The position numbers and the translations under genes were made by a program. This document shows, piece by piece, positions 1,152 through 53,211 of a DNA stretch of 64,000 nt; position 1 is the stretch's first letter, and each line of letters begins with the position of its first letter. The notes beneath the pieces were generated by a model. That model was not told the origin of the DNA. It worked only from the letters and a program-made list of their open reading frames with translations, and searched no databases. Source of the stretch: Bacteroidota bacterium (lineage in GTDB: Bacteria > Bacteroidota > Bacteroidia > B-17B0 > Aurantibacillaceae). Location of the stretch: the NCBI GenBank assembly GCA_963169295.1, contig CAUJDD010000104.1:1085-65084 (forward strand), in the 5' to 3' direction.

Positions 1152-4100
1152 ATTATATTCGAAATTCCATTTTATCTGCTTGAAAGCATATATCATATAT
1201 TTTTTATTGTGTTTGAGCCTAACTGTAGTGGCTCAAAAGGGCGAATATTTTGTAAAAAATTATTCACCAAAAGATTATAACTCAGGTGCTAATAATTCAG
1301 CCGTTTGTCAAGATAAAGATGGCAACATCTTAGTAGCTAACTCAAATGGAATATTAATCTATGATGGCTTTAACTGGTCGTTAAGCACTTCCAGATACGA
1401 ATCTTATGTGTATTCTCTTTATAAATCTTCAAATCAAACCATTTATTACGCCATAGGCGAAGGAGAAACCTTGGACTTTGGAATATTTGAACAAAACACA
1501 AATGGAAAATACCTTTACTATAGTTTAAAAAACGAATCAGGCTCAAATGAAATGCCATTTGATCCCATTCGTCAAATTATTGAATGTAATAATGCAATAT
1601 ATTTTATTGCTACTGATAAAATTATTGAATATAAAAACAAGAAGCTTAAATCATATTCTCCCATCAACTCTTTCAACTCTCGAGCATTTAAAATGGGAAA
1701 TCATTTATTTGTACCCGATATAGATAACCAAGTTTTTGTAATAGATGGGGGCACATTAAAACCCGTGAAAAATTCACAGTATGCTGCTGAAAACAAAGCG
1801 TTTTTCAATTATCAAATTAATGATACAACTTATGCTTTGGGTTATAGAAATATTGGAATTGTTATAGCCACCTATAATGCTAAAGAACCAACACATACTC
1901 AATTTAATAAATTAAATGTAGCCTGTGATTATGAATTAATTGAAAGTGAAATAAATAATGGCACTGCTTTAAGCAATGGTTATTTTGTGGTTACAACCAA
2001 TAAAAGTGGAGCAATTATTTTAAATAAACAATTGCAAATTACAAAACACTTAACCACAAAAGCTGGTTTATTTGAAAACAATATAAAATCAGCTTTTGAA
2101 GATCAAAATGGAAACTTGTGGCTTGCTAATTATTACGGTGTTTCGTATGTAGAAATAAACACACCTTTATTAAAATATGGTAGAGAAAATGGAATTACTG
2201 GATCTGTACAAGCCGCCTGTTATTACAACAAACAATTATATATAGGAACTGATAAAGGATTATTTGTATATGATACCATTACAAATGGATTTATTAACGT
2301 GCTAGGTTTTAATAAACAAACATGGTATTTATTAAGCTTCAAAGAGCATTTATTAGTTTGTACTACTAAAGGTATCTATACTTTTAATGGAAAAAACATT
2401 GACCAATCAACAGAAGATCAAACTAGATATCTGCAAAATGACCCTTTTCAACCCAATATCATTTATGCATCAACCGATAATGGGTTTAATATATATGAGA
2501 TTAAAGATCTAAAATTTATCCTTCAAAAAGAATATAATTTAGGACACGAAGTAAAGAATATTTCCTACGACTATAATCAAAATATATATTTTAGTACCGA
2601 GTTAAATGGAATTTATTACTTAAACAGCAAAAAAGCCTATACTTTAGACTCTATAAAAAGTGAACAAGGCTTGCCAAACGATAAATGGGAGAACTATGTA
2701 TTTAACTATAAAAACAAATTATTAATTGGAACAGAAGCTGGTATTTACTCTGTATCAGAAGATAAACACAATCGATTGTTTTGTAAGAAAGATCCAACAT
2801 TCTATAGCCTAACTAAGAAATCAGAGATATTTAGAGCTGTTGCCTTAGGTGGCGATTTGTTGTGTTCAAAAAACGAAAAGGCTTCAGATTATGATAAATA
2901 CGAAACTAAATATGTTTATTATAAAGAAACATCTAACAACAACATCATTGAAGATAATAGAGGGATAAGAAAATTAAAAGATGTAAAGCCAAATTTAATT
3001 AATTATGATACTTCATTTAAGACCATATTGATTTCGGCCGACGAAGGTTTATTCTTATTGCATCAAAACTATGTTATGCAAAACAAAAAATACCACCTTA
3101 ATCTTAATTTATTGACAAATAAGAAATCCGACACACTATTGTTAAATACAAGTTCGGAAGAACCATTAACTACATTAAACATAGAAGTGCCTTATGAAGA
3201 TAATAATCTTCTGTTTCGTTTTGGATATACCTGTTTTGAATTTCCAGAGATAACAGATTTTAGTTATTACTTAGAAGGGAAAGATGTAGATTATGGGAAA
3301 TGGGGAAAAAAATCAGAGATAGAATTTAACAATCTATTTGAAGGAAAATATATTTTACATGTAAAAACAAAAAACGAAATTTCTAATCAAACACTAGAGA
3401 TGCACATTCCTTTCACCATTATTGCGCCTTGGTACAGGAGTATAGTTGCCTATGTGGTTTATGCTATTATTATTATCTTGATTTTATATATCATTGTTAA
3501 GCTAAATACTAAACGTCTTATAGCACAAAACATAAAACTAGAAGAAATTATTAAACAACGAACAGCAACCATTGAGGAACAGGTTCATCTTTTAGAACAC
3601 CAGAAAAAAGAAATAACCGATAGTATTAACTATGCAAAAGGAATTCAAGCTTCTATATTACCTGATATTTCAAGTATTATATCATCATGGCATGATTTGT
3701 TTGTATTCTTTCAACCAAAAGACATCGTAAGTGGAGATTTTTATTGGTATAAAAAAATTTCAGACGATGAATTCTTAATTGCTTGTGCAGATTGTACAGG
3801 TCATGGTGTGCCTGGTGGATTCATGAGCATGATTTGTTCTGATAAATTACACGATGCTGCAAAAAACAGTAAAGAACCCGCACAAATATTATTTGACACA
3901 AACAATGGTGTAAAAACTACACTAAAACAAGAAATAATTATAGAAGGGAAAAGTAAAGATGGAATGGAGGTGTGTTTACTATATGTAAACATCCAAACAC
4001 AAGAAGTTAAATTTAGCGGTGCTAATCGAATATTATGGATTATTGATGGAGACACTAAAGAGTTGAAGGAAATAAAACCAACTAAAGCCAGTATTGCAAG

Positions 4101-4368
4101 TTTCACCGAATTTAATTTTGAGTACGAACAGCATCACTTTAAACTCAAAAAAGGCGATATGATATATACCACTACCGATGGTTTCCCTGACCAATTTGGT
4201 GGAGTAGATGGAAGAAAATACATGAGTAAGAATATGAAAAAATTTATTGTTTCAATTTGTAACAAGCCTATGCAAGAACAAGCTGAATTAATAAAAAGCG
4301 AAATCAATAATTGGATGCAATCAGTAGAACAAGTTGATGACTTATTAGTAATTGGTATTAGATTATAG
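1135..4368 (+). CDS. Membrane sensor with a periplasmic two-component-regulator propeller and Y_Y_Y domain, one TM helix, and a cytoplasmic PP2C/SpoIIE-type serine phosphatase
   Basis: Repeated D(K/Q)(D/N)GN(I/L)(L/W) motifs followed by G(I/V) resemble Reg_prop repeats. A Y_Y_Y-like block is present ([39 protein letters not shown]), followed by the TM helix [21 protein letters not shown]. The SpoIIE/PP2C motifs are [24 protein letters not shown] and [11 protein letters not shown]. The start is uncertain: the ATG at 1135 lies in a terminator loop, and an in-frame TTG at 1180 gives a cleaner signal anchor. Confidence 0.8.
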
Positions 4369-26132: not shown

Positions 26133-26519
26133 TTATTTCCTATTTAGCATTAATTCCAAAACAGAAATACGTTTATCTTTTTCGAGCAATAATTTTTCGT
26201 AAAGTTCTTTTAATAATTTTACTTCGGTTTGATGGTATATGGTGTTTTCATATTTGCCTCCCTGCTGGTTGTTGCCGTTATTAAAAATAATAGTTGCATC
26301 AAAACCTAATATTTCCTGAGGCGTAACCGCTAATATTTTACTTATCTCATTTAATCTATTAATAGTTAGTTGTGTTTCGCCACTTTCTATTTTACTATAG
26401 GCGCGTGTAGATAATCCAAGCTCCTGCGCCATATATTCTTGCGATAAATTTTTTAATTCTCTTATCTGCCTAATTTTTTCGTTTAAATTTTCTATCATCA
26501 TTTTACCTAAATAGTTCAA
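26133..26519 (-). CDS. XRE-family helix-turn-helix transcriptional regulator
   Basis: IRQIRELKNLSQEYMAQELGLSTRAYSKIESGETQLTINRLNEISKIL is a canonical HTH_3 motif. The C-terminus has coiled-coil character. The true start may be the internal MIENL. It is divergent from the precursor-peptide gene. Confidence 0.88.
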   Translation of the reverse strand: MNYLGKMMIENLNEKIRQIRELKNLSQEYMAQELGLSTRAYSKIESGETQLTINRLNEISKILAVTPQEILGFDATIIFNNGNNQQGGKYENTIYHQTEVKLLKELYEKLLLEKDKRISVLELMLNRK

Positions 26520-26599
26520 AAATAGTAAAAATAATTCAATATTTGAACTTAAAAATATATAATCTAATCAATTAAAAAATAAATTTGTTTTAGTTAGTT

Positions 26600-26621
26600 T
26601 TGTAATACTGCGCAGTTACAA
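26600..26621. promoter_or_regulatory. Imperfect inverted repeat (candidate operator) in the divergent XRE / precursor intergenic region
   Basis: The sequence is TTGTAA-ta-CTGC|GCAG-TTACAA. The core CTGCGCAG is a perfect palindrome flanked by 6-nt inverted arms with a 2-nt bulge, and it is GC-richer than its surroundings. A TAGTTTTG (TAnnTTTG-like -7 box) lies just upstream at about 26596-26603. Confidence 0.3.
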
Positions 26622-26684
26622 TTTTACGGGCGGAAACGAAAAGCCTGCGAATGCTATGAGTAGTAAAAATTTAACATAATTAAA

Positions 26685-26903
26685 ATGAGAAAATTTAAAA
26701 GATTAACTTTGGACCTGTTCAAAGGTTATGAATTAAAAAAAGAAAGCCATAATATGGTTTTAGGTGGTACTCAAGTGATGACTGGTAAGCCAGGAGGATG
26801 TCAATTACCAGACACTGCTGATGACAAAAGTAAAACCCCGAATGGCGGTGGCCCGGGCATACCTACATGGCCCAAAGAAGATATTACTGTGAATAGTAAG
26901 TAA
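26685..26903 (+). CDS. RiPP precursor peptide with a double-glycine (GG) leader
   Basis: 72 aa in total. The leader MRKFKRLTLDLFKGYELKKESHNMVLGG has Leu at -12, Val at -4 and GG at -2/-1. The 44-aa core TQVMTGKPGGCQLPDTADDKSKTPNGGGPGIPTWPKEDITVNSK is rich in Thr/Ser, Asp/Glu, Lys and Gly/Pro. It lies directly upstream of maturases and a C39 exporter. Confidence 0.8.
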   Translation: MRKFKRLTLDLFKGYELKKESHNMVLGGTQVMTGKPGGCQLPDTADDKSKTPNGGGPGIPTWPKEDITVNSK

Positions 26904-26928
26904 TGTTATTGTTGAATCCTAAATATAT

Positions 26929-26970
26929 AAAACTAAGTAGTAAATTAATGCGTTTACTGCTTAGTTTTTT
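26929..26970 (+). terminator. Strong hairpin with T-run (intrinsic terminator or attenuator) between the precursor gene and the maturase genes
   Basis: A 16-bp stem AAAACTAAGTAGTAAA / TTTACTGCTTAGTTTT with one G-U wobble, an 8-nt loop TTAATGCG, and a following TT that extends the T-run. The next ATG is at 26977. Confidence 0.75.
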
Positions 26971-26976
26971 ATGTAA

Positions 26977-27966
26977 ATGAAAAAAGCCGTCATATTTATT
27001 TATCTATGTTTTACTATAAAAAATTGTATAGCACAATTTGATAGTACTCATTATTACCTTAATTCATTACAATACAAAAAAAGTATAAATTACTTAAAAA
27101 GGGAAATTAAAAAAAACGCTTATATCAAGTATAAAAATGGCAATACAACCGCCAAAGATGTTGACGAGATTAATTTAGCTTGCATATATTCATTAAATAA
27201 TGAATATGATAACTGTTTAAAACAATTAAACACATTTGTTAAAAGTAAAACTAATAAAGATGGGTTTTATATTCCTAATAAATGGAGCAACTATGATTAT
27301 TATATTTCTTTCTACACTGATCCAGATTTTTATAGAGTCTCTGTGGCACGTCCAAATGAATGGAAATCTTTTCTAGTTAAGCATAAACATAAGTGTGAGA
27401 TAACGGATACGTTTTTTAGAAAATTAAATATTCCAGATAGCATTTATACTGCTTTAATTCAAATAGGCATAAACGACCAAGCTCATTATCGTGAGATATT
27501 ATTTTATGAAGATAAATATGGTTCACAATCGTCAACAGCTTTAAAATTATGGAAAGAGAAGGATAGTTTAAATAAAGCAAATTTGAAAACTGTTATGTAT
27601 TATTTAGATAGTGGCTATAATGTTTTATCTGATTCGGTAGTTGGTAACTTTTCAAATAAATGTTTTTTAGTTATACAACATGCCGACTTGAAAACACAAG
27701 AAAAAATATTACCTCTAATAAAAAAATTATATGAACAAAAAAAGATACAAGGTAGTAACTATGCGCTGCTTTTTGATAGAATATCAGTTGATAAAAATAA
27801 TGGTACGCAGTTTTATGGTACCCAAATAAACAGTAAAACCAATCAACCATTTTTTATTAAAGATGAAGTAAATGTAGATAAACGGCGTGCAGAATTTGGA
27901 ATGGAATCTATGGCTGATTACTGTAAACGATTTAATATAATTTATAAGCCAAAAAAAACAAAGTGA
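26977..27966 (+). CDS. Secreted protein of unknown function (DUF6624-like C-terminal region)
   Basis: Has the signal peptide MKKAVIFIYLCFTIKNCIAQ. The C-terminal block CFLVIQHADLKTQEKILPLIKKLYEQKKIQGSNYALLFDRISVDKNNGTQFYGTQ resembles what I remember of DUF6624 proteins, but this was not verified. Confidence 0.55.
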   Translation: MKKAVIFIYLCFTIKNCIAQFDSTHYYLNSLQYKKSINYLKREIKKNAYIKYKNGNTTAKDVDEINLACIYSLNNEYDNCLKQLNTFVKSKTNKDGFYIPNKWSNYDYYISFYTDPDFYRVSVARPNEWKSFLVKHKHKCEITDTFFRKLNIPDSIYTALIQIGINDQAHYREILFYEDKYGSQSSTALKLWKEKDSLNKANLKTVMYYLDSGYNVLSDSVVGNFSNKCFLVIQHADLKTQEKILPLIKKLYEQKKIQGSNYALLFDRISVDKNNGTQFYGTQINSKTNQPFFIKDEVNVDKRRAEFGMESMADYCKRFNIIYKPKKTK

Positions 27967-28925
27967 TCCTAATACTTTCAACAGAGAAAGAACTCTTAAC
28001 TCAAAACGTAATAAATTGGCTTCTATATTATAATATAGAATTCAAACGATTTAATGATGGCGATATAACAAATCCTGAGATTAATATTTCAAATAATACA
28101 ATTAAGATAAATTTCATCGATCAGAATGAATGTAGTATCGATTCATTAACAAAATATTGGTATAGAAGAGGATATTTAGACTTTACCAATAGCTTACTAA
28201 TTGGTGATAACGATATGATTATTGAAATAAATAAACACAAAACCGATAATGATAATGACATTATTAATTATATACATTATTATCTGCAAACAAATGTCAG
28301 CAACGTAAATAGTTTTAATGATAATTCTTTAAATAAATTAACTGAACTTACTGTGGCGCGGAAATTAGGAATTAAAATCCCCGATACTTTAATAACCACT
28401 AATAAAAATTCAGTTCTATCTTTTATAATTAAACATAAAAAAGTTATTACAAAACCAATAAAAAGGGCATTAAATTTTAAAATTGAAGGGGTGAATTTTT
28501 ATACTGAAACACATTTACTAACAGCTAACGATGTAATGAATTATCCTAATAACTTCTCGCCTATTAAACTACAAAATTATATTGAAAAAGCATTTGAATT
28601 AAGAGTGTTTTATTTAGATGGAGTATTTTACTCCTCAGCAATTTTTTCACAGAATGATGAACAAACAAAAATTGATTTTAGAAATTATAATGAATCGAAT
28701 CCAAATAGAGTCTTACCGTTTAATATGCCAAAAACTGAAGAAGCAAAATTTAGAAAGTTGATGAAAGCATTAAACCTTAATTCAGGCTCATTAGATATTA
28801 TTGTAACCAAGGATGGTGAATATGTCTTTTTAGAAGTAAATCCAGTAGGTCAATTTACTCAAGTTTCTTTTCCGTGCAATTATTATTTAGAAAAACAAAT
28901 GGCAATAAGCCTATCAAAACGATAA
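27963..28925 (+). CDS. ATP-grasp peptide maturase (RimK/MvdC-D-like; grasp-with-SPASM system type)
   Basis: GTG start overlapping the upstream stop. ATP-grasp blocks are NKLTELTVARKLGIKIPDTLIT, VITKPI, ELRVFYLDG, IDFRNY and GSLDIIVTKDGEYVFLEVNPVGQF. Confidence 0.82.
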   Translation: MILILSTEKELLTQNVINWLLYYNIEFKRFNDGDITNPEINISNNTIKINFIDQNECSIDSLTKYWYRRGYLDFTNSLLIGDNDMIIEINKHKTDNDNDIINYIHYYLQTNVSNVNSFNDNSLNKLTELTVARKLGIKIPDTLITTNKNSVLSFIIKHKKVITKPIKRALNFKIEGVNFYTETHLLTANDVMNYPNNFSPIKLQNYIEKAFELRVFYLDGVFYSSAIFSQNDEQTKIDFRNYNESNPNRVLPFNMPKTEEAKFRKLMKALNLNSGSLDIIVTKDGEYVFLEVNPVGQFTQVSFPCNYYLEKQMAISLSKR

Positions 28926-28926
28926 T

Positions 28927-29133
28927 ATGGAACCGTATAAACTAATAGAGCAAGCATCGTTGAATCAAATAAACAAACTACCTATTACTTACAAAAAAAT
29001 GGCAAGTTCAACCGATTTGAATTCACCAATAAGTATCATATCTGATACAATATTTGTAAAAAGTACAAGACATCAAACGCCTTTTTTTGGAGGAATTCGA
29101 TTTTACAAAAACATTGAAATATTCATAATCTAA
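28927..29133 (+). CDS. 68-aa hypothetical protein embedded between the two maturase genes
   Basis: The ORF fills the ATP-grasp/SPASM gap exactly, with a 1-nt spacer on each side, suggesting translational coupling. I recognised no motif. Confidence 0.5.
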   Translation: MEPYKLIEQASLNQINKLPITYKKMASSTDLNSPISIISDTIFVKSTRHQTPFFGGIRFYKNIEIFII

Positions 29134-29134
29134 A

Positions 29135-30256
29135 ATGATAAATAAAAATTATTGTGTAACAACAACTTGCTTTCCTATTAAAGGTTTTCTAAGAACTGCT
29201 ATATATGATTTGCCAAAAGCTACTTATGAATTTGTACCTAATGCGGTTCATGATTTTTTGAGACTACTCTCACAAAAATCATTTTCTCAAATCTATAGAA
29301 ATACTACTGAAGAGAATAAAACATATTTAAGTGAATATTTTCAATATTGCCTAGAGAAAGAATATATATTAGAAATCCCTAATGAGATTAATAAAAAACA
29401 TTTTCCAAAACTAAATTTAAATTTTGAGTTTCCAAGTATAATATCCAATTTAGTTATAAGAGTTAATAAAGATCTTGATTTTGAAAAGATTAAAGATATA
29501 CTTGTTTCTTTAAAATGTTTTAATATTCAATTAATAACTGACTCTACATTTGATATAAATAAAATTGAACAATACTTAGATGTAATTAAAGACATTGGTC
29601 TACATTCTATTGAACTTATAGTGGCATATAGCCCTGGTATTAACTATGAATTATTAACTAACAAATATAAAAACATTGCGTTTATCTTTATTTATTCTGC
29701 ACCTGTTAACAAATTTATTAAAAGACATGTTTTAGGTTTACAACAAATATTTACTTCAAAAAACAAGTTTGAAATCACTCATATTAAATCGTTAGATTTT
29801 TTTAACGTAAATATAACTTTGTTTACAGAATCACAACTACATAATACATATTTTAATCGTAAACTATTCATAGGAGATAAGGGGGAAATTAAAAATTCGA
29901 TAGAGTCACCGACAGAATTTGGAAATATAAATAATCTAAAGCAACCCGACGATATCTTAAAAATTATAAATTCGATTGAATTTCAAAAATATTGGTTTAT
30001 ACATAAAGGTATAATAGATGTATGTAAACAATGTGAGTTTCGGTATATGTGTGTTGATAATAGAATACCGTTACAACGCAACGAAAAAGAATGGTATTTC
30101 GATACAGAATGTAATTATAACCCCTATATTGCGAAATGGCGTGGCGAAAAAGGATACAAGACTTTATCAGAATGTGGTGTTACATCAAACCAAGAGGGCT
30201 TTAAGTTAAATCGCAAAAAAATAAACACAATAAATAAAGAATTGTGGGGCGATTAA
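29135..30256 (+). CDS. SPASM/twitch-like domain peptide maturase lacking the canonical radical-SAM CxxxCxxC motif
   Basis: The C-terminal Cys cluster is G-IIDV-C-KQ-C-EFRYM-C, then 19 residues to a Cys, then 20 residues to another Cys. The N-terminus has only C7 and C12 (CVTTTC), and no CxxxCxxC occurs anywhere in the 373 aa. Confidence 0.7.
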   Translation: MINKNYCVTTTCFPIKGFLRTAIYDLPKATYEFVPNAVHDFLRLLSQKSFSQIYRNTTEENKTYLSEYFQYCLEKEYILEIPNEINKKHFPKLNLNFEFPSIISNLVIRVNKDLDFEKIKDILVSLKCFNIQLITDSTFDINKIEQYLDVIKDIGLHSIELIVAYSPGINYELLTNKYKNIAFIFIYSAPVNKFIKRHVLGLQQIFTSKNKFEITHIKSLDFFNVNITLFTESQLHNTYFNRKLFIGDKGEIKNSIESPTEFGNINNLKQPDDILKIINSIEFQKYWFIHKGIIDVCKQCEFRYMCVDNRIPLQRNEKEWYFDTECNYNPYIAKWRGEKGYKTLSECGVTSNQEGFKLNRKKINTINKELWGD

Positions 30257-32439
30257 GTTTTACTCATTATAAACAACCCGATGAAATGGCCTGTGGCGCA
30301 ACTTGTTTGCGCATGATTGCCAAGCACTACGGTAAGTCCATCTCATTGCCTGATATAGTTCAACTAAGCGGAACCACAAGAGAGGGGGTTAACTTACTAG
30401 GTATAAGTGAAGCTTCTGAAAGGCTAGGATTTAGAACACTAGGAGTAAAAGTCCCATTTGATAAATTAATTGAAAATGCCCCCTTGCCATGTATTGCGCA
30501 TTGGAATCAAAACCATTTTGTTGTAATTTATAAAATTAAGGCTGATAAAATTTATATTGCAGACCCTGCACACGGTTTATTAACGTATAACAAAGTAGAT
30601 TTTTTAAAAGCATGGGTGAGCGATGGTAAAGATGAGGGGATTTTATTACTATTTGAAACCACTCCCGAATTTTACACAGAGGATAAAAGTCTTTCAAACG
30701 AGAAGCAAAAAAACAATTTTTCTTTTTTATACACCTATTTAATTAAACATAAAAAAGCCATAATACAACTCTTTATTGGTTTAATGGCAGGTAGCCTGTT
30801 ACAGCTTATCTTCCCATTTTTAACGCAAAGCATTATTGATATTGGTGTTCAAAATAAAGACATAAACTTTATCTACTTAATTCTCTTAGCTCAATTAATG
30901 GTGTTTTTTGGCAGAACTACCATCGATGTCATAAGAAGTTATATACTAATGCACGTTAGCAGCCGAATTAATATCTTGCTGGCAAGTGATTTTTTTGTAA
31001 AACTCATGAAGTTACCTATACGGTACTTTGACACTAAGATGACAGGGGACATCATGCAACGCATAAATGATAATCACAGGATTGAAAATTTTTTAACTGG
31101 CTATTCACTAAATACACTATTTTCATTGTTTAATTTTATCATATTTAGTGGAGTTTTAGCTTGGTATAGCTTAAAAATATTTTTAGTTTTTTTGATTGGC
31201 TCTGTTATCTATTTTATTTGGATAACCTTTTTTTTAAAACGCCGTGCCGATCTAGATTTTAAACGTTTTCAGCAAAGTAGCCAAAACCAAAGTAAGGTAA
31301 TGGAACTCATTAACGGAATGCAGGAAATTAAACTACACAATGCCGAACGGCAAAAGCGTTGGCAATGGGAGAACCTACAAACCAAATTATTTAAGATTAA
31401 CTTAAAGGGACTTTCTTTAACCACCGCCCAAAACTCAGGCTCACAATTAATTAACGAACTTAAAAACATTATTATCACTTTTTTATCAGCCAAATTAGTA
31501 CTTGACGGTCAAGTTACCTTAGGCATGATGCTTTCTATAAGTTATATCATCGGTCAGTTAAATAGTCCTGTAAACGAAATGGTGCATTTTATTCAGCAAT
31601 GGCAAGATGCTAAATTAAGTTTGGAGCGTTTAGGAGAAATTCATAACAAAGAGGATGAAGAACCTAATGGTAAAGAAAAAATTTCAGAAATTGAACAAAA
31701 CAGTTCATTTCACCTAAATAACCTTACGTTTAAATATGAGGGCGTAGGAAATGATGCTGTTCTATACGATTTAAGCGTTTCCATTCCGTCCAATAAAATT
31801 ACAGCCATAGTTGGAAGTAGTGGTAGTGGTAAAACAACCTTATTAAAACTCTTACTAAAATTCTATGAACCTACGCATGGAGAAATAAAATTAAACGAAA
31901 TAAATCTTAATCATTTATCAGCACAAACATGGCGAAATAAATGCGGTGTTGTAATGCAAGAGGGGTATATTTTTAATGATACCATCGCCAACAATATAGC
32001 TGTTGGAGTAGATGTTGTAGATAGAGATAAATTAAAACATGCTGTTAATGTAGCTAATATTAAAGAGTTTATAGAAAGCCTACCTTTAGGATATAATACT
32101 AAAATAGGCATGGAAGGTATTGGTATTAGTACAGGGCAAAAGCAAAGAATTTTAATTGCTAGAGCCGTTTACAAAAACCCTGATTATTTATTTTTTGATG
32201 AAGCTACAAGTGCTTTAGATGCTAATAATGAAAAAATAATAATGGAAAATTTAAACGAATTCTTTAAAGGTAAAACGGTTGTGATTATTGCCCATCGTTT
32301 AAGTACAGTTAAAAATGCTGACCAAATTATTGTTTTGGATAGAGGTAAGATTATTGAAAAAGGTAATCATATCGAATTGACACTAATTAAGGGGGCATAT
32401 TACGAACTTGTGAAAAATCAATTAGAATTAGGAAACTGA
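30244..32439 (+). CDS. Peptide cleavage/export ABC transporter with an N-terminal C39 (double-glycine) peptidase domain
   Basis: The C39 catalytic context is QPDEMACGATCLRMIAKHYG, with HWNQNHFVVIY (His) and ADPA. A 6-TM domain follows. Walker A is GSSGSGKTT, the signature motif is STGQKQR and Walker B is LFFDEATSALD. The start codon is GTG. Confidence 0.92.
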   Translation: MGRLSFTHYKQPDEMACGATCLRMIAKHYGKSISLPDIVQLSGTTREGVNLLGISEASERLGFRTLGVKVPFDKLIENAPLPCIAHWNQNHFVVIYKIKADKIYIADPAHGLLTYNKVDFLKAWVSDGKDEGILLLFETTPEFYTEDKSLSNEKQKNNFSFLYTYLIKHKKAIIQLFIGLMAGSLLQLIFPFLTQSIIDIGVQNKDINFIYLILLAQLMVFFGRTTIDVIRSYILMHVSSRINILLASDFFVKLMKLPIRYFDTKMTGDIMQRINDNHRIENFLTGYSLNTLFSLFNFIIFSGVLAWYSLKIFLVFLIGSVIYFIWITFFLKRRADLDFKRFQQSSQNQSKVMELINGMQEIKLHNAERQKRWQWENLQTKLFKINLKGLSLTTAQNSGSQLINELKNIIITFLSAKLVLDGQVTLGMMLSISYIIGQLNSPVNEMVHFIQQWQDAKLSLERLGEIHNKEDEEPNGKEKISEIEQNSSFHLNNLTFKYEGVGNDAVLYDLSVSIPSNKITAIVGSSGSGKTTLLKLLLKFYEPTHGEIKLNEINLNHLSAQTWRNKCGVVMQEGYIFNDTIANNIAVGVDVVDRDKLKHAVNVANIKEFIESLPLGYNTKIGMEGIGISTGQKQRILIARAVYKNPDYLFFDEATSALDANNEKIIMENLNEFFKGKTVVIIAHRLSTVKNADQIIVLDRGKIIEKGNHIELTLIKGAYYELVKNQLELGN

Positions 32440-33740
32440 TGCCATCTATAGAAGAAAAGGAAATAATTTTGCGTTCAGAAGAAGTAAATGAGATATTGAC
32501 TTCAACACCGAAATGGATTTTACGCTGGGGTATTTTAGTTGTTTTTATATTGATTATTATAACTATTGGACTTTCATATTTTATTAAATACCCAGATGTA
32601 TTGACTGCTGATGTTACTTTGACTACATTAAATCCACCAATAACATTAGTTTCAAAAAATAATGGAAAACTTACCCATCTTTTAGTGAAAGATAAACAAT
32701 TGGTAAGCCAAAATGAACCGATTGGTATTATAGAGAACACAGCCGATTACAAAGCTGTACTTTCTTTATTGGCAAACTGCAATCAATTAAACGAACAATT
32801 AAAATTAAACGACACACTTAATAATGTTTTAATTAAAGATAGTTTAAGAACTGGAGAAATTACACCTTACTACTTACAATTTTTAAAATCAGTCAAAGAC
32901 CTTAATCTTTATGAAAGCATTAATCCTTACACTAAACAAATTGCATTATTGAAAAAAGATTTAGGACATTACAATTCTTTGCTTGATAATTATAAGCATC
33001 AACAAAAAATTAACGATGAACAATTAAAGTTAGCTGAAAATGACTTTAATCGGGATAAAAAATTATTTGAAGAAAGGGCAATATCAGCAAGGGAATTTGA
33101 AATACAAAAGAAAAATTATTTAGGTGCTCAAAACAGTAATGAACAAACTAAGATTACAATTTCAAATGCACTAATTCAAATTAATGGAATTGAAAAGAAC
33201 ATCTTACAGTTACAAATACAAGATTATCAAGAAAAGGCGAAACTTAAAAATGAATTATCACAGTATTTAAAAACGCTCATTAATGAAATTAATAAATGGA
33301 AGCAGTTATATGTAATTGAAAGCCCTGTGAGTGGGAAAGTATCGTTTTTTAATGTATGGGCAATCAATCAAAACATCAAACAAGGTGATGAGCTTTTTGC
33401 TATCATTCCTAATAAGAAACAGCAATTTATAGGAAAATGTGTTTTGCCAATAACCAATAGTGGGAAATTAACCATTGGACAAGTTGTAAACATAAAACTT
33501 GACAATTATCCTTATAATGAAAATGGGATGTTAACAGGGGTTGTAAAAAACATTTCCGAAGTGCCTAATAAAGATAGTTATGCAGTTGATATTGTTTTAG
33601 CGAATGGCTTAACAACTTCGTACAATAAAACTCTAGTATATAAAGAACAAATGAAGGGCAAAGCAGATATTATAACGAAAAATATATCCGTTTTAGATAG
33701 AGTATTTTTTAATTTTCGTAAACTAACAGAAATAAAGTAA
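32439..33740 (+). CDS. HlyD-family membrane-fusion/secretion adaptor protein
   Basis: An N-terminal TM helix (WGILVVFILIIITIGLSYFI) is followed by a long coiled-coil middle region and a C-terminal beta-barrel-like region. The start overlaps the ABC gene stop. Confidence 0.85.
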   Translation: MPSIEEKEIILRSEEVNEILTSTPKWILRWGILVVFILIIITIGLSYFIKYPDVLTADVTLTTLNPPITLVSKNNGKLTHLLVKDKQLVSQNEPIGIIENTADYKAVLSLLANCNQLNEQLKLNDTLNNVLIKDSLRTGEITPYYLQFLKSVKDLNLYESINPYTKQIALLKKDLGHYNSLLDNYKHQQKINDEQLKLAENDFNRDKKLFEERAISAREFEIQKKNYLGAQNSNEQTKITISNALIQINGIEKNILQLQIQDYQEKAKLKNELSQYLKTLINEINKWKQLYVIESPVSGKVSFFNVWAINQNIKQGDELFAIIPNKKQQFIGKCVLPITNSGKLTIGQVVNIKLDNYPYNENGMLTGVVKNISEVPNKDSYAVDIVLANGLTTSYNKTLVYKEQMKGKADIITKNISVLDRVFFNFRKLTEIK

Positions 33741-42800: not shown

Positions 42801-44209
42801 TAACACTTACAACCACACCTACGCCATTAAATTATACTTGGTCACCATCACCAGCAAGTGGTGTAAACTCTACCATACCAACATTTAATACAGCAGGTGT
42901 TTATACTTGTGTTATTACAAATACTGTAAATAACTGTAGTACAACCGCCCAAGTAACCGTGAGTAGTAATACAACCATTCCAAGTGTTACAATCTCAGGA
43001 ACACAAACATTAACCTGCGCATCTCCAACTGCTGCTATTACACTAACAACTACTCCAGCAAGTGGATTAACTTATAATTGGACAGGAGGTACCATTGTTT
43101 CTGGACAAGGAACCGATAACATAACTGTTAACCAAGCAGGAAACTATACAGTTACAGTTACTGATGCTGTAAATGGTTGCACAACCACCGCAAATACTCA
43201 GATATTTGCTGATACAAATGTACCAAGCGCTTCTGTCTCTGCAAGTACTAATAGTATCATTACTTGTGTGAATAATACCGTAACTCTAACAGCTACAGTT
43301 ACTCCAAGCGCAACCTATTCTTACACTTGGTCGCCTAGTGGAAATACATCTGTTTCTGAAAATGTTACTTCAGCTGGTATTTACACAGTTACTGTTTTAA
43401 ACGCATCAACTGGATGTACTGCTACTGCTCAATTTACAGTTACAAACAACATAACAGCTCCAAATGTTACTAGCTCAAATACAACAACACCTTGTGGTTC
43501 ACCTTCGGTGACTTTATTAGCTAGTTCCACAAACACCAATGTTTCTTATTCTTGGTCGGCATCGTCAGGAACAATTCTTTCAGGTAGTAATACCGCTAAC
43601 CCAATTGCTGGAGGAGCCGGACAATATGTAGTTACTGTAACAGACAATGATAATGGTTGTACAAATTCACAAACAATAACCGTTACAACAACCAGTATCA
43701 CTTCATCGTTCTCGGTTGATCCAACAAGTGGTTCAGCGCCATTAACTGTAAACTTTACAGATCAAAGTAGTGGTACTGGTAATACTTATTCTTGGAACTT
43801 TGGTGATGATAACAACAACACTTCCTCTTCAGCTAATCCAAGCCACGTGTATAACACAACTGGAGATTACACGGTTACACTTACTGTAACAGACGCATCA
43901 GGCTCATGTTCATCAACCTCAACTGTAGTTATAAATGTATTTGATAATGCAAGTATTACAGTTCCAAATGTATTTACGCCAAATGGTGATAGCAAAAACG
44001 ATGTGTTTAAAATTATTACAACAGGCATTGAGGAACTTCATTGTGATATCTTTAACCGCTGGGGAACTAAGGTTGCTAGCCTTGAAGGAACAAACGCTAT
44101 TTGGGATGGAAATAACGCTAAAGATGGTACCTATTTCTTTATCTTAACAGCAAAAGGTTATGATGATAAAGAATATAAACAACAAGGATACATAAACTTG
44201 TTTAGATAA
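39878..44209 (+). CDS. Giant cell-surface adhesin-like protein with an N-terminal CUB-like domain, about 13 Ig-like repeats, a PKD domain and a type-B T9SS (gliding-motility-associated, CHU_C) C-terminal domain
   Basis: Has a signal peptide. The CUB-like segment is GTLLDPGGAGNYPNNVNQIYQVFCP...GYDFLTIGNG...LTFRFNSDATVNRPGFTASL. Repeated roughly 80-aa units follow the pattern TLTC....V.L.A......Y.W.GPG......G.Y.VTVT...NGC. The PKD-like block is PLTVNFTDQSSGTGNTYSWNFGDD...HVYNTTGDYTVTLTVTD. The C-terminus is VPNVFTPNGDSKNDVFKI...DGTYFFILTAKG...GYINLFR. Confidence 0.85.
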   Translation: MKKLYTLLFSILFVATFAQTFILPSTGVQNTYSGGCPVGTCSGTLLDPGGAGNYPNNVNQIYQVFCPTTPGTCIQATFTSFNTELGYDFLTIGNGPAQNSAVFTGAPANASGQIWGTPTVPFSYTANNSSGCLTFRFNSDATVNRPGFTASLSCVPCGAAQPAGNSDACAASFICSNLGFNDVSYGPGLNPTEGCAGSSCVTGETYSNWYTFSAATSGSLTFTINPNTGSDDFDYAIFGPNVSCGALGNPLRCSYAANTGNTGLGNGALDTSEDVTGNGWTSPMTVTAGQTYMLMINNWTAGGAGFNILFGGTATLGVLAPAVSSTSICAGQSAVLTATPATPGGTYTWSPGGANTQSISVSPGSTTSYSVVYAQGGCTSPASALATVTVNSVPTANAGTTKTITCANPTATLTGSGGGSYAWNGPGIVSGGTSANPVVNAPGTYSLNVTSPQGCTSSVATVAISQNTTTPSPTANHTGTLTCSNGTVALTGSPSSGVTYQWSGPGFSGGTTSQNAIATAPGTYTLRVTDAVNGCTATAVTTVTQNTATPVVTGASTATLTCASNTLNLNATTAATPVSYNWNGPGIVSGVGTGTITINQPGTYNYTVTNTSNGCVTTGTRSVTQNTTAPVVNGSVTGTLSCVNNTVNITATTAASPVNYSWNGPGIVSGSSTGTITVNQPGTYNYTVTNISNGCFTTGSQTVTQSAGLPVVNASTSGTLSCTTTSLTVSATTTSSPVSYNWNGPGIVSGTGTGTITVNQPGTYNYTVTNTSNGCSTTGSQAVSSNTTVVNANASSSGSITCATNNVTLTATPTGTNFNYSWTGPGTITNGTTDSPSVDAGGNYVVTVTNSTNGCFDTFTISVSTNTTVPILSLAANSLTTTCTTSTVMLNASSNTDPNSAYSWTVSSGGSLSSTTVNNPTALSGGIYDVVVTNTVNGCVSSMQTVTVTADANIPTYTLSATDVTLTCISSSETVTLTTTPTPLNYTWSPSPASGVNSTIPTFNTAGVYTCVITNTVNNCSTTAQVTVSSNTTIPSVTISGTQTLTCASPTAAITLTTTPASGLTYNWTGGTIVSGQGTDNITVNQAGNYTVTVTDAVNGCTTTANTQIFADTNVPSASVSASTNSIITCVNNTVTLTATVTPSATYSYTWSPSGNTSVSENVTSAGIYTVTVLNASTGCTATAQFTVTNNITAPNVTSSNTTTPCGSPSVTLLASSTNTNVSYSWSASSGTILSGSNTANPIAGGAGQYVVTVTDNDNGCTNSQTITVTTTSITSSFSVDPTSGSAPLTVNFTDQSSGTGNTYSWNFGDDNNNTSSSANPSHVYNTTGDYTVTLTVTDASGSCSSTSTVVINVFDNASITVPNVFTPNGDSKNDVFKIITTGIEELHCDIFNRWGTKVASLEGTNAIWDGNNAKDGTYFFILTAKGYDDKEYKQQGYINLFR
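41524..42243 (+). repeat. Three consecutive, highly similar 240-bp (80-aa) tandem repeats inside the adhesin gene
   Basis: The units start at about 41524, 41764 and 42004. They share long near-identical DNA stretches, for example AATTGGAACGGACCAGGAATAGTTTC and AATCAACCTGGTACTTATAACTA...ACTAATACTTCAAATGGTTGT. Protein units share SYNWNGPGIVSG.GTGTIT(V/I)NQPGTYNYTVTN(T/I)SNGC. Confidence 0.85.
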
Positions 44210-44230: not shown

Positions 44231-44261
44231 AAAAGCTATCTCTTTTCGAGATAGCTTTTTT
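44231..44261 (+). terminator. Rho-independent terminator after the adhesin gene
   Basis: Perfect 12-bp stem AAAAGCTATCTC / GAGATAGCTTTT with loop TTTTC and a trailing T-run. Confidence 0.85.
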
Positions 44262-52842: not shown

Positions 52843-52944
52843 TGCACAGGTTTAGTTAATTGGTTAAACAAATACACAAAAAGCCAGGGAAAAAGAAATA
52901 GTCATTTCTTTGAACCTCGTTTTTTATGCGAAAACAAAATTCAA

Positions 52945-53069
52945 ACTGATTTGGCAGGTAATCTGACTTTGGTTTATTATACCATTCACAGTTGCGCAAC
53001 AGTTCAGGAATTTCACCTGATTCCCCTATTCTCTGTTTATTCAGTACTTATTTAAACAGCCAACTCAGT
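52945..53069 (-). promoter_or_regulatory. Cobalamin (B12) riboswitch aptamer in the nrdB-nrdA leader
   Basis: The minus strand reads AATAGGGGAATCAGGTGAAATTCCTGAACTGTTGCGCAACTGTGAATGG ... AAGTCAGATTACCTGCC. The first part matches the conserved core AAnAGGGAAnnnGGTGnAAnTCCnnnnCnGnnnnGCnACTGT. The second matches the B12 box rAGYCMGgAgaCCkGCc. A closing P1 helix forms between ACTGAGTTGGC (53069-53059) and GCCAAATCAGT (52955-52945), 11 bp with 1 mismatch. A P2-like hairpin CTGTTTA...TAAACAG lies at 53059-53033. Confidence 0.75.
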
Positions 53070-53211
53070 AATCATTCGGTGGTAAAAATAATTTAAATTT
53101 TAAAAGTTGATAGTTGTATGATAATTTTTAATTATTCACAGATGTTCATTGTTATACACACTTGTTGAAATCGAAGCTAAACTGGTGATTTATATACTAT
53201 TATGAATTTCT

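Follow-up and report, generated by a model that had tools for sequence, protein, structure and literature searches.

The stretch of DNA analysed here, referred to as the window, comprises 64,000 nucleotides (32% G+C) of contig CAUJDD010000104.1 from a Bacteroidota bacterium (GCA_963169295.1), and carries at positions 26685-26903 a small open reading frame (ORF) for a 72-residue peptide with a double-glycine leader. This gene heads an operon that encodes an ATP-grasp ligase, a SPASM-domain protein, a C39 peptidase/ATP-binding cassette (ABC) exporter and an HlyD-family adaptor, and for this reason the peptide is read, with a probability of roughly 0.8, as the graspetide-type precursor of a grasp-with-spasm cluster, predicted to be cleaved at its first Gly-Gly. 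Between 26977 and 33740, neighbouring plus-strand genes either overlap or sit 1 nt apart, and the cluster with all its accessory genes is contained in one 7.6-kb stretch with a single precursor (Table 1).

Table 1. Features of the cluster, with their positions in the window and the evidence or content recorded for each
Feature	Position	Strand	Evidence or content
Precursor ORF	26685-26903	+	72-residue peptide; leader MRKFKRLTLDLFKGYELKKESHNMVLGG, core TQVMTGKPGGCQLPDTADDKSKTPNGGGPGIPTWPKEDITVNSK, whole MRKFKRLTLDLFKGYELKKESHNMVLGGTQVMTGKPGGCQLPDTADDKSKTPNGGGPGIPTWPKEDITVNSK
Leader peptide, residues 1-28	26685-26768	+	C-terminal G27-G28; family leader alignments
Core peptide, residues 29-72, and stop codon	26769-26903	+	Alignments; codon substitution pattern
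RNA hairpin and T-run	26929-26970	+	RNA folding, 17-bp stem, 6-nt loop; analogues in relatives
DUF6624 protein with signal peptide	26977-27966	+	Pfam PF20329, 9e-14
ATP-grasp peptide maturase (GwsG)	27963-28925	+	TIGR04192, 281.9 bits (cutoff 230), model positions 1-316 of 318
Conserved 68-residue protein, LPL-family-like putative chaperone	28927-29133	+	Alignment; position directly upstream of the SPASM gene
SPASM-domain protein (GwsS)	29135-30256	+	TIGR04193, 190.6 bits (cutoff 175)
Peptidase-C39/ABC exporter (PCAT)	30244-32439	+	Peptidase_C39, 2e-34; ABC_membrane; ABC_tran
HlyD-family periplasmic adaptor	32439-33740	+	TIGR01843, 3e-28; HlyD_3
XRE/HTH_3 transcriptional regulator, divergent	26133-26519	-	Pfam HTH_3, 7e-15
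Near-perfect palindrome TGTAATACTGCGCAGTTACA, between regulator and precursor	26611-26630	+	Read from the sequence

Re-translation of the ORF reproduced all of the residue counts and positions given in an earlier sequence-only reading of this DNA: a leader that ends in G27-G28 with L17 at -12 and V25 at -4, and a 44-residue core with 5 acidic residues, 5 Lys, 8 Ser/Thr, a single Cys (C39), one Trp (W62) and PGG and GGGPG segments. Position -7 of the leader is His, at a site that is usually hydrophobic in the double-glycine leader consensus; the features of such leaders that are present include the conserved GG, V or I at -4 and L at -12 (across 17 sequences), and a cognate C39 transporter. Between the window and the related locus L003, 24 core codons are identical, 15 differ only synonymously and 5 are non-synonymous, a pattern that indicates purifying selection. 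A homologous small ORF, on whose presence in homologous clusters the earlier reading had staked its case, was found at the equivalent position in nine independent loci, and together with the codon pattern these equally placed homologues establish the ORF as a real coding gene. No other small ORF of the window combines a basic N-terminus with a GG placed 13-45 residues from the start.

Close homologues occur in metagenomes (P0001-P0004), and the identical cluster is found in at least 23 public contigs, including one from the NCBI metagenome-assembled genome (MAG) GCA_020846025.1 ('Bacteroidia bacterium'). In the annotation of that copy (L007, JADLER010000008.1), the call for the precursor begins at an internal start codon and gives a 64-residue 'hypothetical protein', 8 codons short, and the gene for the 68-residue protein is not called.

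Makarova et al. (2022, PMC8939145) described grasp-with-spasm as Branch 5, a group of Bacteroidetes-specific ATP-grasp and SPASM loci in which a small 'LPL' protein is in every case encoded immediately upstream of the SPASM gene, accompanied by a secreted 'cluster 23' protein, a C39-ABC exporter and HlyD. In the RODEO survey of Carter et al. (2026, PMC13097080), the same system is graspetide group 14, with 1,643 biosynthetic gene clusters (BGCs) and 100% co-occurrence of TIGR04193, and a 2026 preprint reported gwsG/gwsS operons on integrative and conjugative elements (ICEs) of P. gingivalis (Porphyromonas gingivalis), where the precursor often goes uncalled. As judged from its genes, the present cluster is a grasp-with-spasm system, a further member of this bioinformatically catalogued class and not a new kind of system. 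It shares with the class a Bacteroidota host, a GG-type precursor leader, both signature enzymes above their curated cutoffs, and a small conserved protein whose gene comes immediately before that of the SPASM protein, followed by the C39-ABC exporter and HlyD. NCBI gives the name 'grasp-with-spasm system SPASM domain peptide maturase' to a protein identical to the window's SPASM protein. The PDB sequence matches of the ATP-grasp protein, all five of them graspetide-type ligases, are MdnC (2.6e-24), CdnC (9.3e-20), AMdnB, MdnB and an MvdD-like protein. Additionally, the C39 domain keeps its Cys, His and Asp motifs (QxxxxxC...H...D, ...MACGATC...), and the exporter, a peptidase-containing ABC transporter (PCAT), would be expected to cut after the GG and to export the peptide.

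A search of 1.84 billion representatives with a profile of the precursor family returned eight matches, which were combined with the genomic loci and cluster members into a family alignment of 17 sequences. Leader positions M1, K3, F12, K13, E16, L17, G27 and G28 are invariant in this alignment, the leader motif of the family being K-F-K-x-Y/H-E-L (KFKxYEL in the window), and the invariant core positions are T33, D43 and D66, accompanied in all 17 sequences by S or T at position 49 and W or Y at position 62. The family can be described by a single-copy signature, GG-x4-T-x6-9-D-x-[AFY]-[DN]-x2-[ST]-x6-12-[WY]-x3-D, whose elements are a pair of hydroxyl donors, a pair of carboxylate acceptors and a single aromatic residue. 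This alignment supplies the conserved core residues that the sequence-only reading had proposed to look for, and it agrees with the absence of a repeated TxKxxxE/D core motif noted there. The predicted cleavage after G27-G28 likewise gains from the invariance of the first GG; processing at the second GG (G37-G38), which had been named as the alternative, is disfavoured, given that this pair is deleted or replaced in most members and absent from P0003, L001, L002 and others.

Conservation in the family does not extend to the second GG, to Cys39 or to the GGGPG segment. The description of the core as unusual and Gly/Pro-rich thus holds as far as the segment and the Cys are present, and needs revision in what it emphasises: on the alignment, the Gly/Pro-rich segment and the single Cys are variable parts and T...D...[ST]...[WY]xxxD is the conserved part. 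Branch 5 precursors were already described as hyperdiverse, with 8 known against 79 new clusters, sharing an MKKL-type leader, GG sites, one conserved Thr/Ser and one Asp/Glu (PMC8939145), so an odd core is to be expected here. Compared with the published surveys, the core is a member of a rare, undescribed sub-family, as aligned here, and the searched portions of the supplements to PMC8939145 and PMC13097080 contain no match to its family-specific strings. TIGR04149 (GG_sam_targ_CFB), the model for GG-leader Bacteroidetes precursors of ribosomally synthesized, post-translationally modified peptides (RiPPs), is matched by 11 of 13 aligned relatives (best E 1.3e-6), and the family leader follows its style, MKK...L..FK..EL....GG; one relative carries the IMG name 'natural product precursor'. 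Unlike these relatives, the window leader (MRKFKRLTLDLFKG...) has diverged at its N-terminus, and the model, which covers the leader and not this core, does not match it even at E <= 10.

Several points weigh against the assignment of the peptide as a graspetide-type precursor. Scanned against NCBIfam and Pfam, the window peptide has no match to a precursor model even with E relaxed to 10, TIGR04139, TIGR04149 and PF14406 included, by which it also differs from the surveyed grasp-with-spasm precursors. In the literature searched, no characterized product of any grasp-with-spasm cluster was found, so the action of the ATP-grasp enzyme on such cores is argued from homology, and no report on ring topology or on the role of the SPASM protein was found there either. 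Furthermore, strictly invariant core positions number only three, which leaves the assignment of rings weakly constrained. The missing match to any graspetide precursor model would also suit a GG-leader bacteriocin or signalling peptide that leaves through the PCAT unmodified, or modified by the SPASM protein only, the ATP-grasp enzyme acting elsewhere; TIGR04149 is named as an 'rSAM-modified RiPP' (radical S-adenosylmethionine) family and not as a graspetide family, and a few relatives weakly resemble ComC. Such a peptide is nevertheless very unlikely, because the precursor family adjoins DUF6624, and a TIGR04192-type ATP-grasp gene wherever the contig is long enough, because the window holds no other candidate substrate ORF, and because the three invariant core residues together with S/T49 are all of the graspetide donor and acceptor types.

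The SPASM protein of the cluster departs from the radical SAM (rSAM)/SPASM maturases of the CteB, SuiB and PqqE type, which combine a CxxxCxxC motif with a seven-Cys SPASM motif. Across 46 homologues, no CxxxCxxC motif was found; C297, C300, C306 and C326 are invariant and C347 is nearly so, giving CxxCx5C plus one or two more Cys, and a Pfam scan of the protein returned no Radical_SAM or SPASM match. With no CxxxCxxC, 4-5 conserved Cys and no Radical_SAM match, the protein is unlikely to cleave SAM alone, and it may be a non-radical partner protein and not an rSAM enzyme. Its AlphaFold2 (AF2) model, with a predicted local distance difference test (pLDDT) score of 93, begins with a unit of four strands and three helices, predicted to resemble a RiPP recognition element (RRE), and continues with a beta/alpha domain. 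The only significant PDB fold matches of the model are the RiPP maturases CteB and SuiB, which are weak (E 1e-4 to 6e-4, template modelling (TM) score about 0.26-0.39; best E 1e-4, TM 0.38), and a PDB sequence search with the protein gave spurious toxin matches only. The protein is taken to be related to the rSAM-SPASM maturases but diverged, its SAM cluster having been lost.

That CteB forms thioethers and SuiB cross-links would be in keeping with a different emphasis, in which the defining modification is a thioether or radical cross-link installed by the SPASM protein at Cys39, in sactipeptide or ranthipeptide style, and ester rings are secondary. Cys39 is indeed invariant among the five closest sequences, and Makarova et al. 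(PMC8939145) proposed thioethers for Cys-rich Branch 5 precursors. This chemistry is unlikely to define the family, however, given that Cys is missing from L002/P0007 and P0012 and placed differently elsewhere, and given the Cys content and absent Radical_SAM match of the SPASM protein described above.

The 68-residue ORF returned no NCBIfam or Pfam match at E up to 10. Its conservation spans the full length, with L18, P19, Y22, K23 and RFYK invariant and the blocks L-P-h, YK, KS.RHQT and RFYKNIEIF; the L-P is followed by I, V or A (LPh, not LPL), and the likeness to the LPL family is one of position and description. Small, conserved and lodged between two maturase genes, this ORF might be thought the true or a second substrate, with the 72-residue peptide as an accessory. 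Such an exchange of roles is highly improbable: the conservation is that of a folded protein, no leader-like GG is present, and the FFGG of the window copy gives way to LFES, YFAS, NLVS, KLGA or LFEG in relatives, leaving no conserved GG. Judged from these alignments, the 68-residue protein is not a substrate and fits the LPL-family position, and Makarova et al. (PMC8939145) likewise concluded that the LPL family is not a substrate.

The DUF6624 gene lies directly 3' of the precursor in eight of the nine sub-family loci. In the protein, Gln20 is invariant and comes after a signal peptide, in line with the Q-rule of Bacteroidetes; Q234-H235, D267-R268 and R303-R304 are also conserved. Its AF2 model (pLDDT 89) is all-alpha with weak matches to tetratricopeptide repeat (TPR)-like folds (E >= 0.01, TM < 0.3), and for this reason no function is assigned to it; a likeness between the Trp-acidic peptide binding of kinesin light-chain TPRs and the W-x3-D motif was set aside as speculation. 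DUF6624, the signal peptide and the conserved His/Arg agree with the secreted 'cluster 23' protein of Branch 5, compared by description only. In PMC13097080, DUF6624 was singled out in other graspetide groups as perhaps being a biosynthetic enzyme yet to be discovered, and unlike its place after the precursor here, it is not among the frequent co-occurring families of group 14.

Between the precursor and the DUF6624 gene stands an RNA hairpin whose arms, AAAACTAAGTAGTAAAT (26929-26945) and GTTTACTGCTTAGTTTT (26952-26968), enclose the loop TAATGC; 2 of its 17 pairs are G.U, and five more outer pairs are possible. The sequence-only reading had described a 16-bp stem with a T-run, immediately after the stop codon and 6 nt before the next ATG. 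The hairpin, the T-run and the 6-nt distance stand, whereas the stem has 17 bp and starts 25 nt past the stop codon. On its 3' side the stem is followed by TT, ATGTAA and the ATG at 26977, and the TTTTTT run lies partly inside the stem. Folding of the RNA gave a minimum free energy of -22.1 kcal/mol (z = -7.4), a stability that all 200 shuffled sequences failed to reach. In an RNA-folding scan of both strands in 50-nt segments, the hairpin ranked 11th among 25,582 segments, and it has the longest uninterrupted stem among the top results despite the low G+C. Its sequence is unique in the window, so the possibility that it is a repeated element was rejected. A search for known families with Rfam, over the whole window and permissively over 26450-27050, found none at the 5' untranslated region (UTR) or the hairpin, with chance-level microRNA and small RNA matches only. 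A DNA inverted-repeat finder did not place the hairpin among the 25 longest pairs listed, probably because two of the stem pairs are G.U.

Comparison with relatives shows that seven of nine independent loci have a strong hairpin (-18 to -29 kcal/mol) after the stop codon of their last precursor, with z-scores of -5.9 to -9.6 in four loci. The stem sequences are unrelated between loci, except for those of the window and L003, which are homologous; their three differences all preserve pairing through G.U/A-U exchanges, and such exchanges keep the pairing only in the RNA of the plus strand. The nonanucleotide ATGTAAATG, between the hairpin and the DUF6624 start (window 26971-26979; L003 830-838), is kept in these two closest loci; it can be read as a mini-ORF of a single codon, ATG-TAA, ahead of the real start, and may bear on translational re-initiation after the hairpin.

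With a stable stem and a U-run on the transcribed strand, the hairpin has the build of an intrinsic terminator, and its likeliest role is partial termination or stabilization of the 3' end. The A-run/stem/T-run build is shared by two further hairpins of the window, each at the 3' end of a gene, which marks it as the local terminator style. These are perfect 12-13-bp hairpins at 44231-44259 and 1122-1150, just after ORFs ending at 44209 and 1080, and they look like bidirectional-type intrinsic terminators. Given the 6-nt gap to the ATG and the gap-free packing of the genes beyond, expression of the downstream genes must depend on read-through or else on a promoter located within the precursor ORF. 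On the conserved structure and the packing of the operon, attenuation at the hairpin is favoured, at somewhat better than even odds. Counting against it, the hairpin escaped a simple terminator scan. In addition, L008 and L014 lack a hairpin after the precursor and that of L002 has no T-run, from which it follows that attenuation is not obligatory for the system. These same loci are what speaks for a full terminator combined with a maturase promoter inside the precursor ORF, or for a purely 3' stability or processing element; in L001, a 269-nt spacer past the hairpin could hold a separate promoter, and sigma-70-type scans are uninformative in this organism. Such a role is possible and still rather improbable for the window, in view of the 6 nt from hairpin to start, the packed downstream genes and the build shared with other gene-end terminators of this genome.

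Lantibiotic operons have a terminator or attenuator hairpin after the structural gene, as with nisA before nisB. The present arrangement resembles that of nisA and nisB in having a stable stem-loop between the precursor and co-directional modification genes without an obvious promoter of their own; it differs in its Bacteroidota host and in a T-run that varies among relatives, and attenuation here would be deduced from sequence.

What the sequences show directly is the gene with its selection pattern, the signature of the family, the make-up of the cluster, and the hairpin with its recurrence; the modifications, cleavage site, attenuation and bioactivity proposed for the system are predictions, and the pathway may be pictured as follows. 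Transcription of the precursor would start at a promoter within the 165 bp between it and the divergent XRE gene, and most transcripts would end or gain stability at the hairpin and T-run. Some would read through into the DUF6624, ATP-grasp, 68-residue, SPASM, PCAT and HlyD genes, so that precursor mRNA would exceed maturase mRNA. The leader motif K-F-K-x-Y/H-E-L would serve as the recognition element of the maturases, with possible help from the 68-residue LPL-like protein and from the N-terminal, RRE-like part of the SPASM protein. The ATP-grasp enzyme would then form side-chain omega-ester rings, with T33 and S/T49 as donors and D43 and D66 as acceptors, an assignment of specific residues that is slightly favoured over its absence; the product most likely has two rings, whichever way donors and acceptors pair. 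The SPASM protein would add or assist a further step independent of Cys39. Subsequently, the C39 domain would cut after G27-G28, and the 44-residue core would be exported with HlyD.

A bolder and doubtful proposal is that the sub-family could define a new graspetide topology, with two large ester rings and an ATP-grasp enzyme whose activity requires a complex with the 68-residue LPL-like protein and a SPASM protein that bears an RRE and is non-radical; in such partner-dependent synthesis, the SPASM protein, having lost SAM chemistry, would act as a scaffold or iron-sulfur accessory, and the exported DUF6624 protein as an extracytoplasmic tailoring or immunity factor. Compared with chryseoviridin (CdnA/CdnC) and microviridin (MdnA/MdnB/MdnC), the system shares a homologous ATP-grasp enzyme and, as far as the sequence suggests, the logic of leader-guided side-chain ester or amide macrocyclization; with chryseoviridin it also shares a Bacteroidota source. 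Unlike both, it lacks a core motif that is repeated or of the TxKxPSD type, as well as a leader motif of the PFFARFL type, and it includes a SPASM protein, an LPL-like protein and DUF6624 in addition.

Grasp-with-spasm clusters are numerous, at 1,643 BGCs, yet lack a reported product in the literature searched. The present locus is a practical candidate for heterologous expression, being compact, with a single precursor, a clear signature, an unambiguous predicted cleavage site and all accessory genes together. The analysis also flags annotation problems, namely a precursor called short or 'hypothetical', a 68-residue gene omitted, and a SPASM partner that has no radical-SAM motif in 46 homologues.

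Upstream of the precursor, the divergent XRE gene is likely to be the regulator of the cluster, and a divergent helix-turn-helix (HTH) gene is equally placed in L001, L004, L005-7, L012/13 and L014. The palindrome TGTAATACTGCGCAGTTACA could be an operator or a 5' RNA stem. Locus-specific palindromes were observed at the matching place in L001 (~2213-2240), L002 (~1285-1310), L003 (~505-525) and L004 (~655-700), those of L001 and L002 reading ACTT(G/C)TATGTGCGCACATA(T/G)AAGT, and an alignment of the 5' UTRs of five loci contained no common element beyond them. A sigma-70 promoter scan gave 57 sites against 52.9 expected from shuffles, which is no better than chance.

Where the contigs of related loci reach, as in L002, L003, L005-7, L008 and L010-15, the order is divergent HTH gene, precursor or precursors, DUF6624, ATP-grasp, 68-residue ORF, SPASM and PCAT. 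In L001, a 446-residue secreted repeat protein (2829-4169) replaces DUF6624. L008 (685-8876 of ENA ERZ19568826 scaffold_934) has three tandem precursors of the family and, between the SPASM gene and PCAT, a 1,046-residue LanB-like dehydratase (Lant_dehydr_N/C), and it may represent a graspetide/lanthipeptide hybrid pathway. L001 and L014 lie in one Sphingobacteriales MAG, GCA_025353765.1, as two paralogous clusters with different cores.

In the window itself, the genes that flank the cluster are unrelated to it and encode PASTA, type IX secretion system (T9SS) cargo, pseudouridine synthase, LigB, GNAT and OmpA/PD40 proteins. The only Rfam match of the window at the gathering threshold is a cobalamin riboswitch aptamer, RF00174, on the minus strand at 52936-53079 (46.2 bits against a gathering threshold of 31.5).

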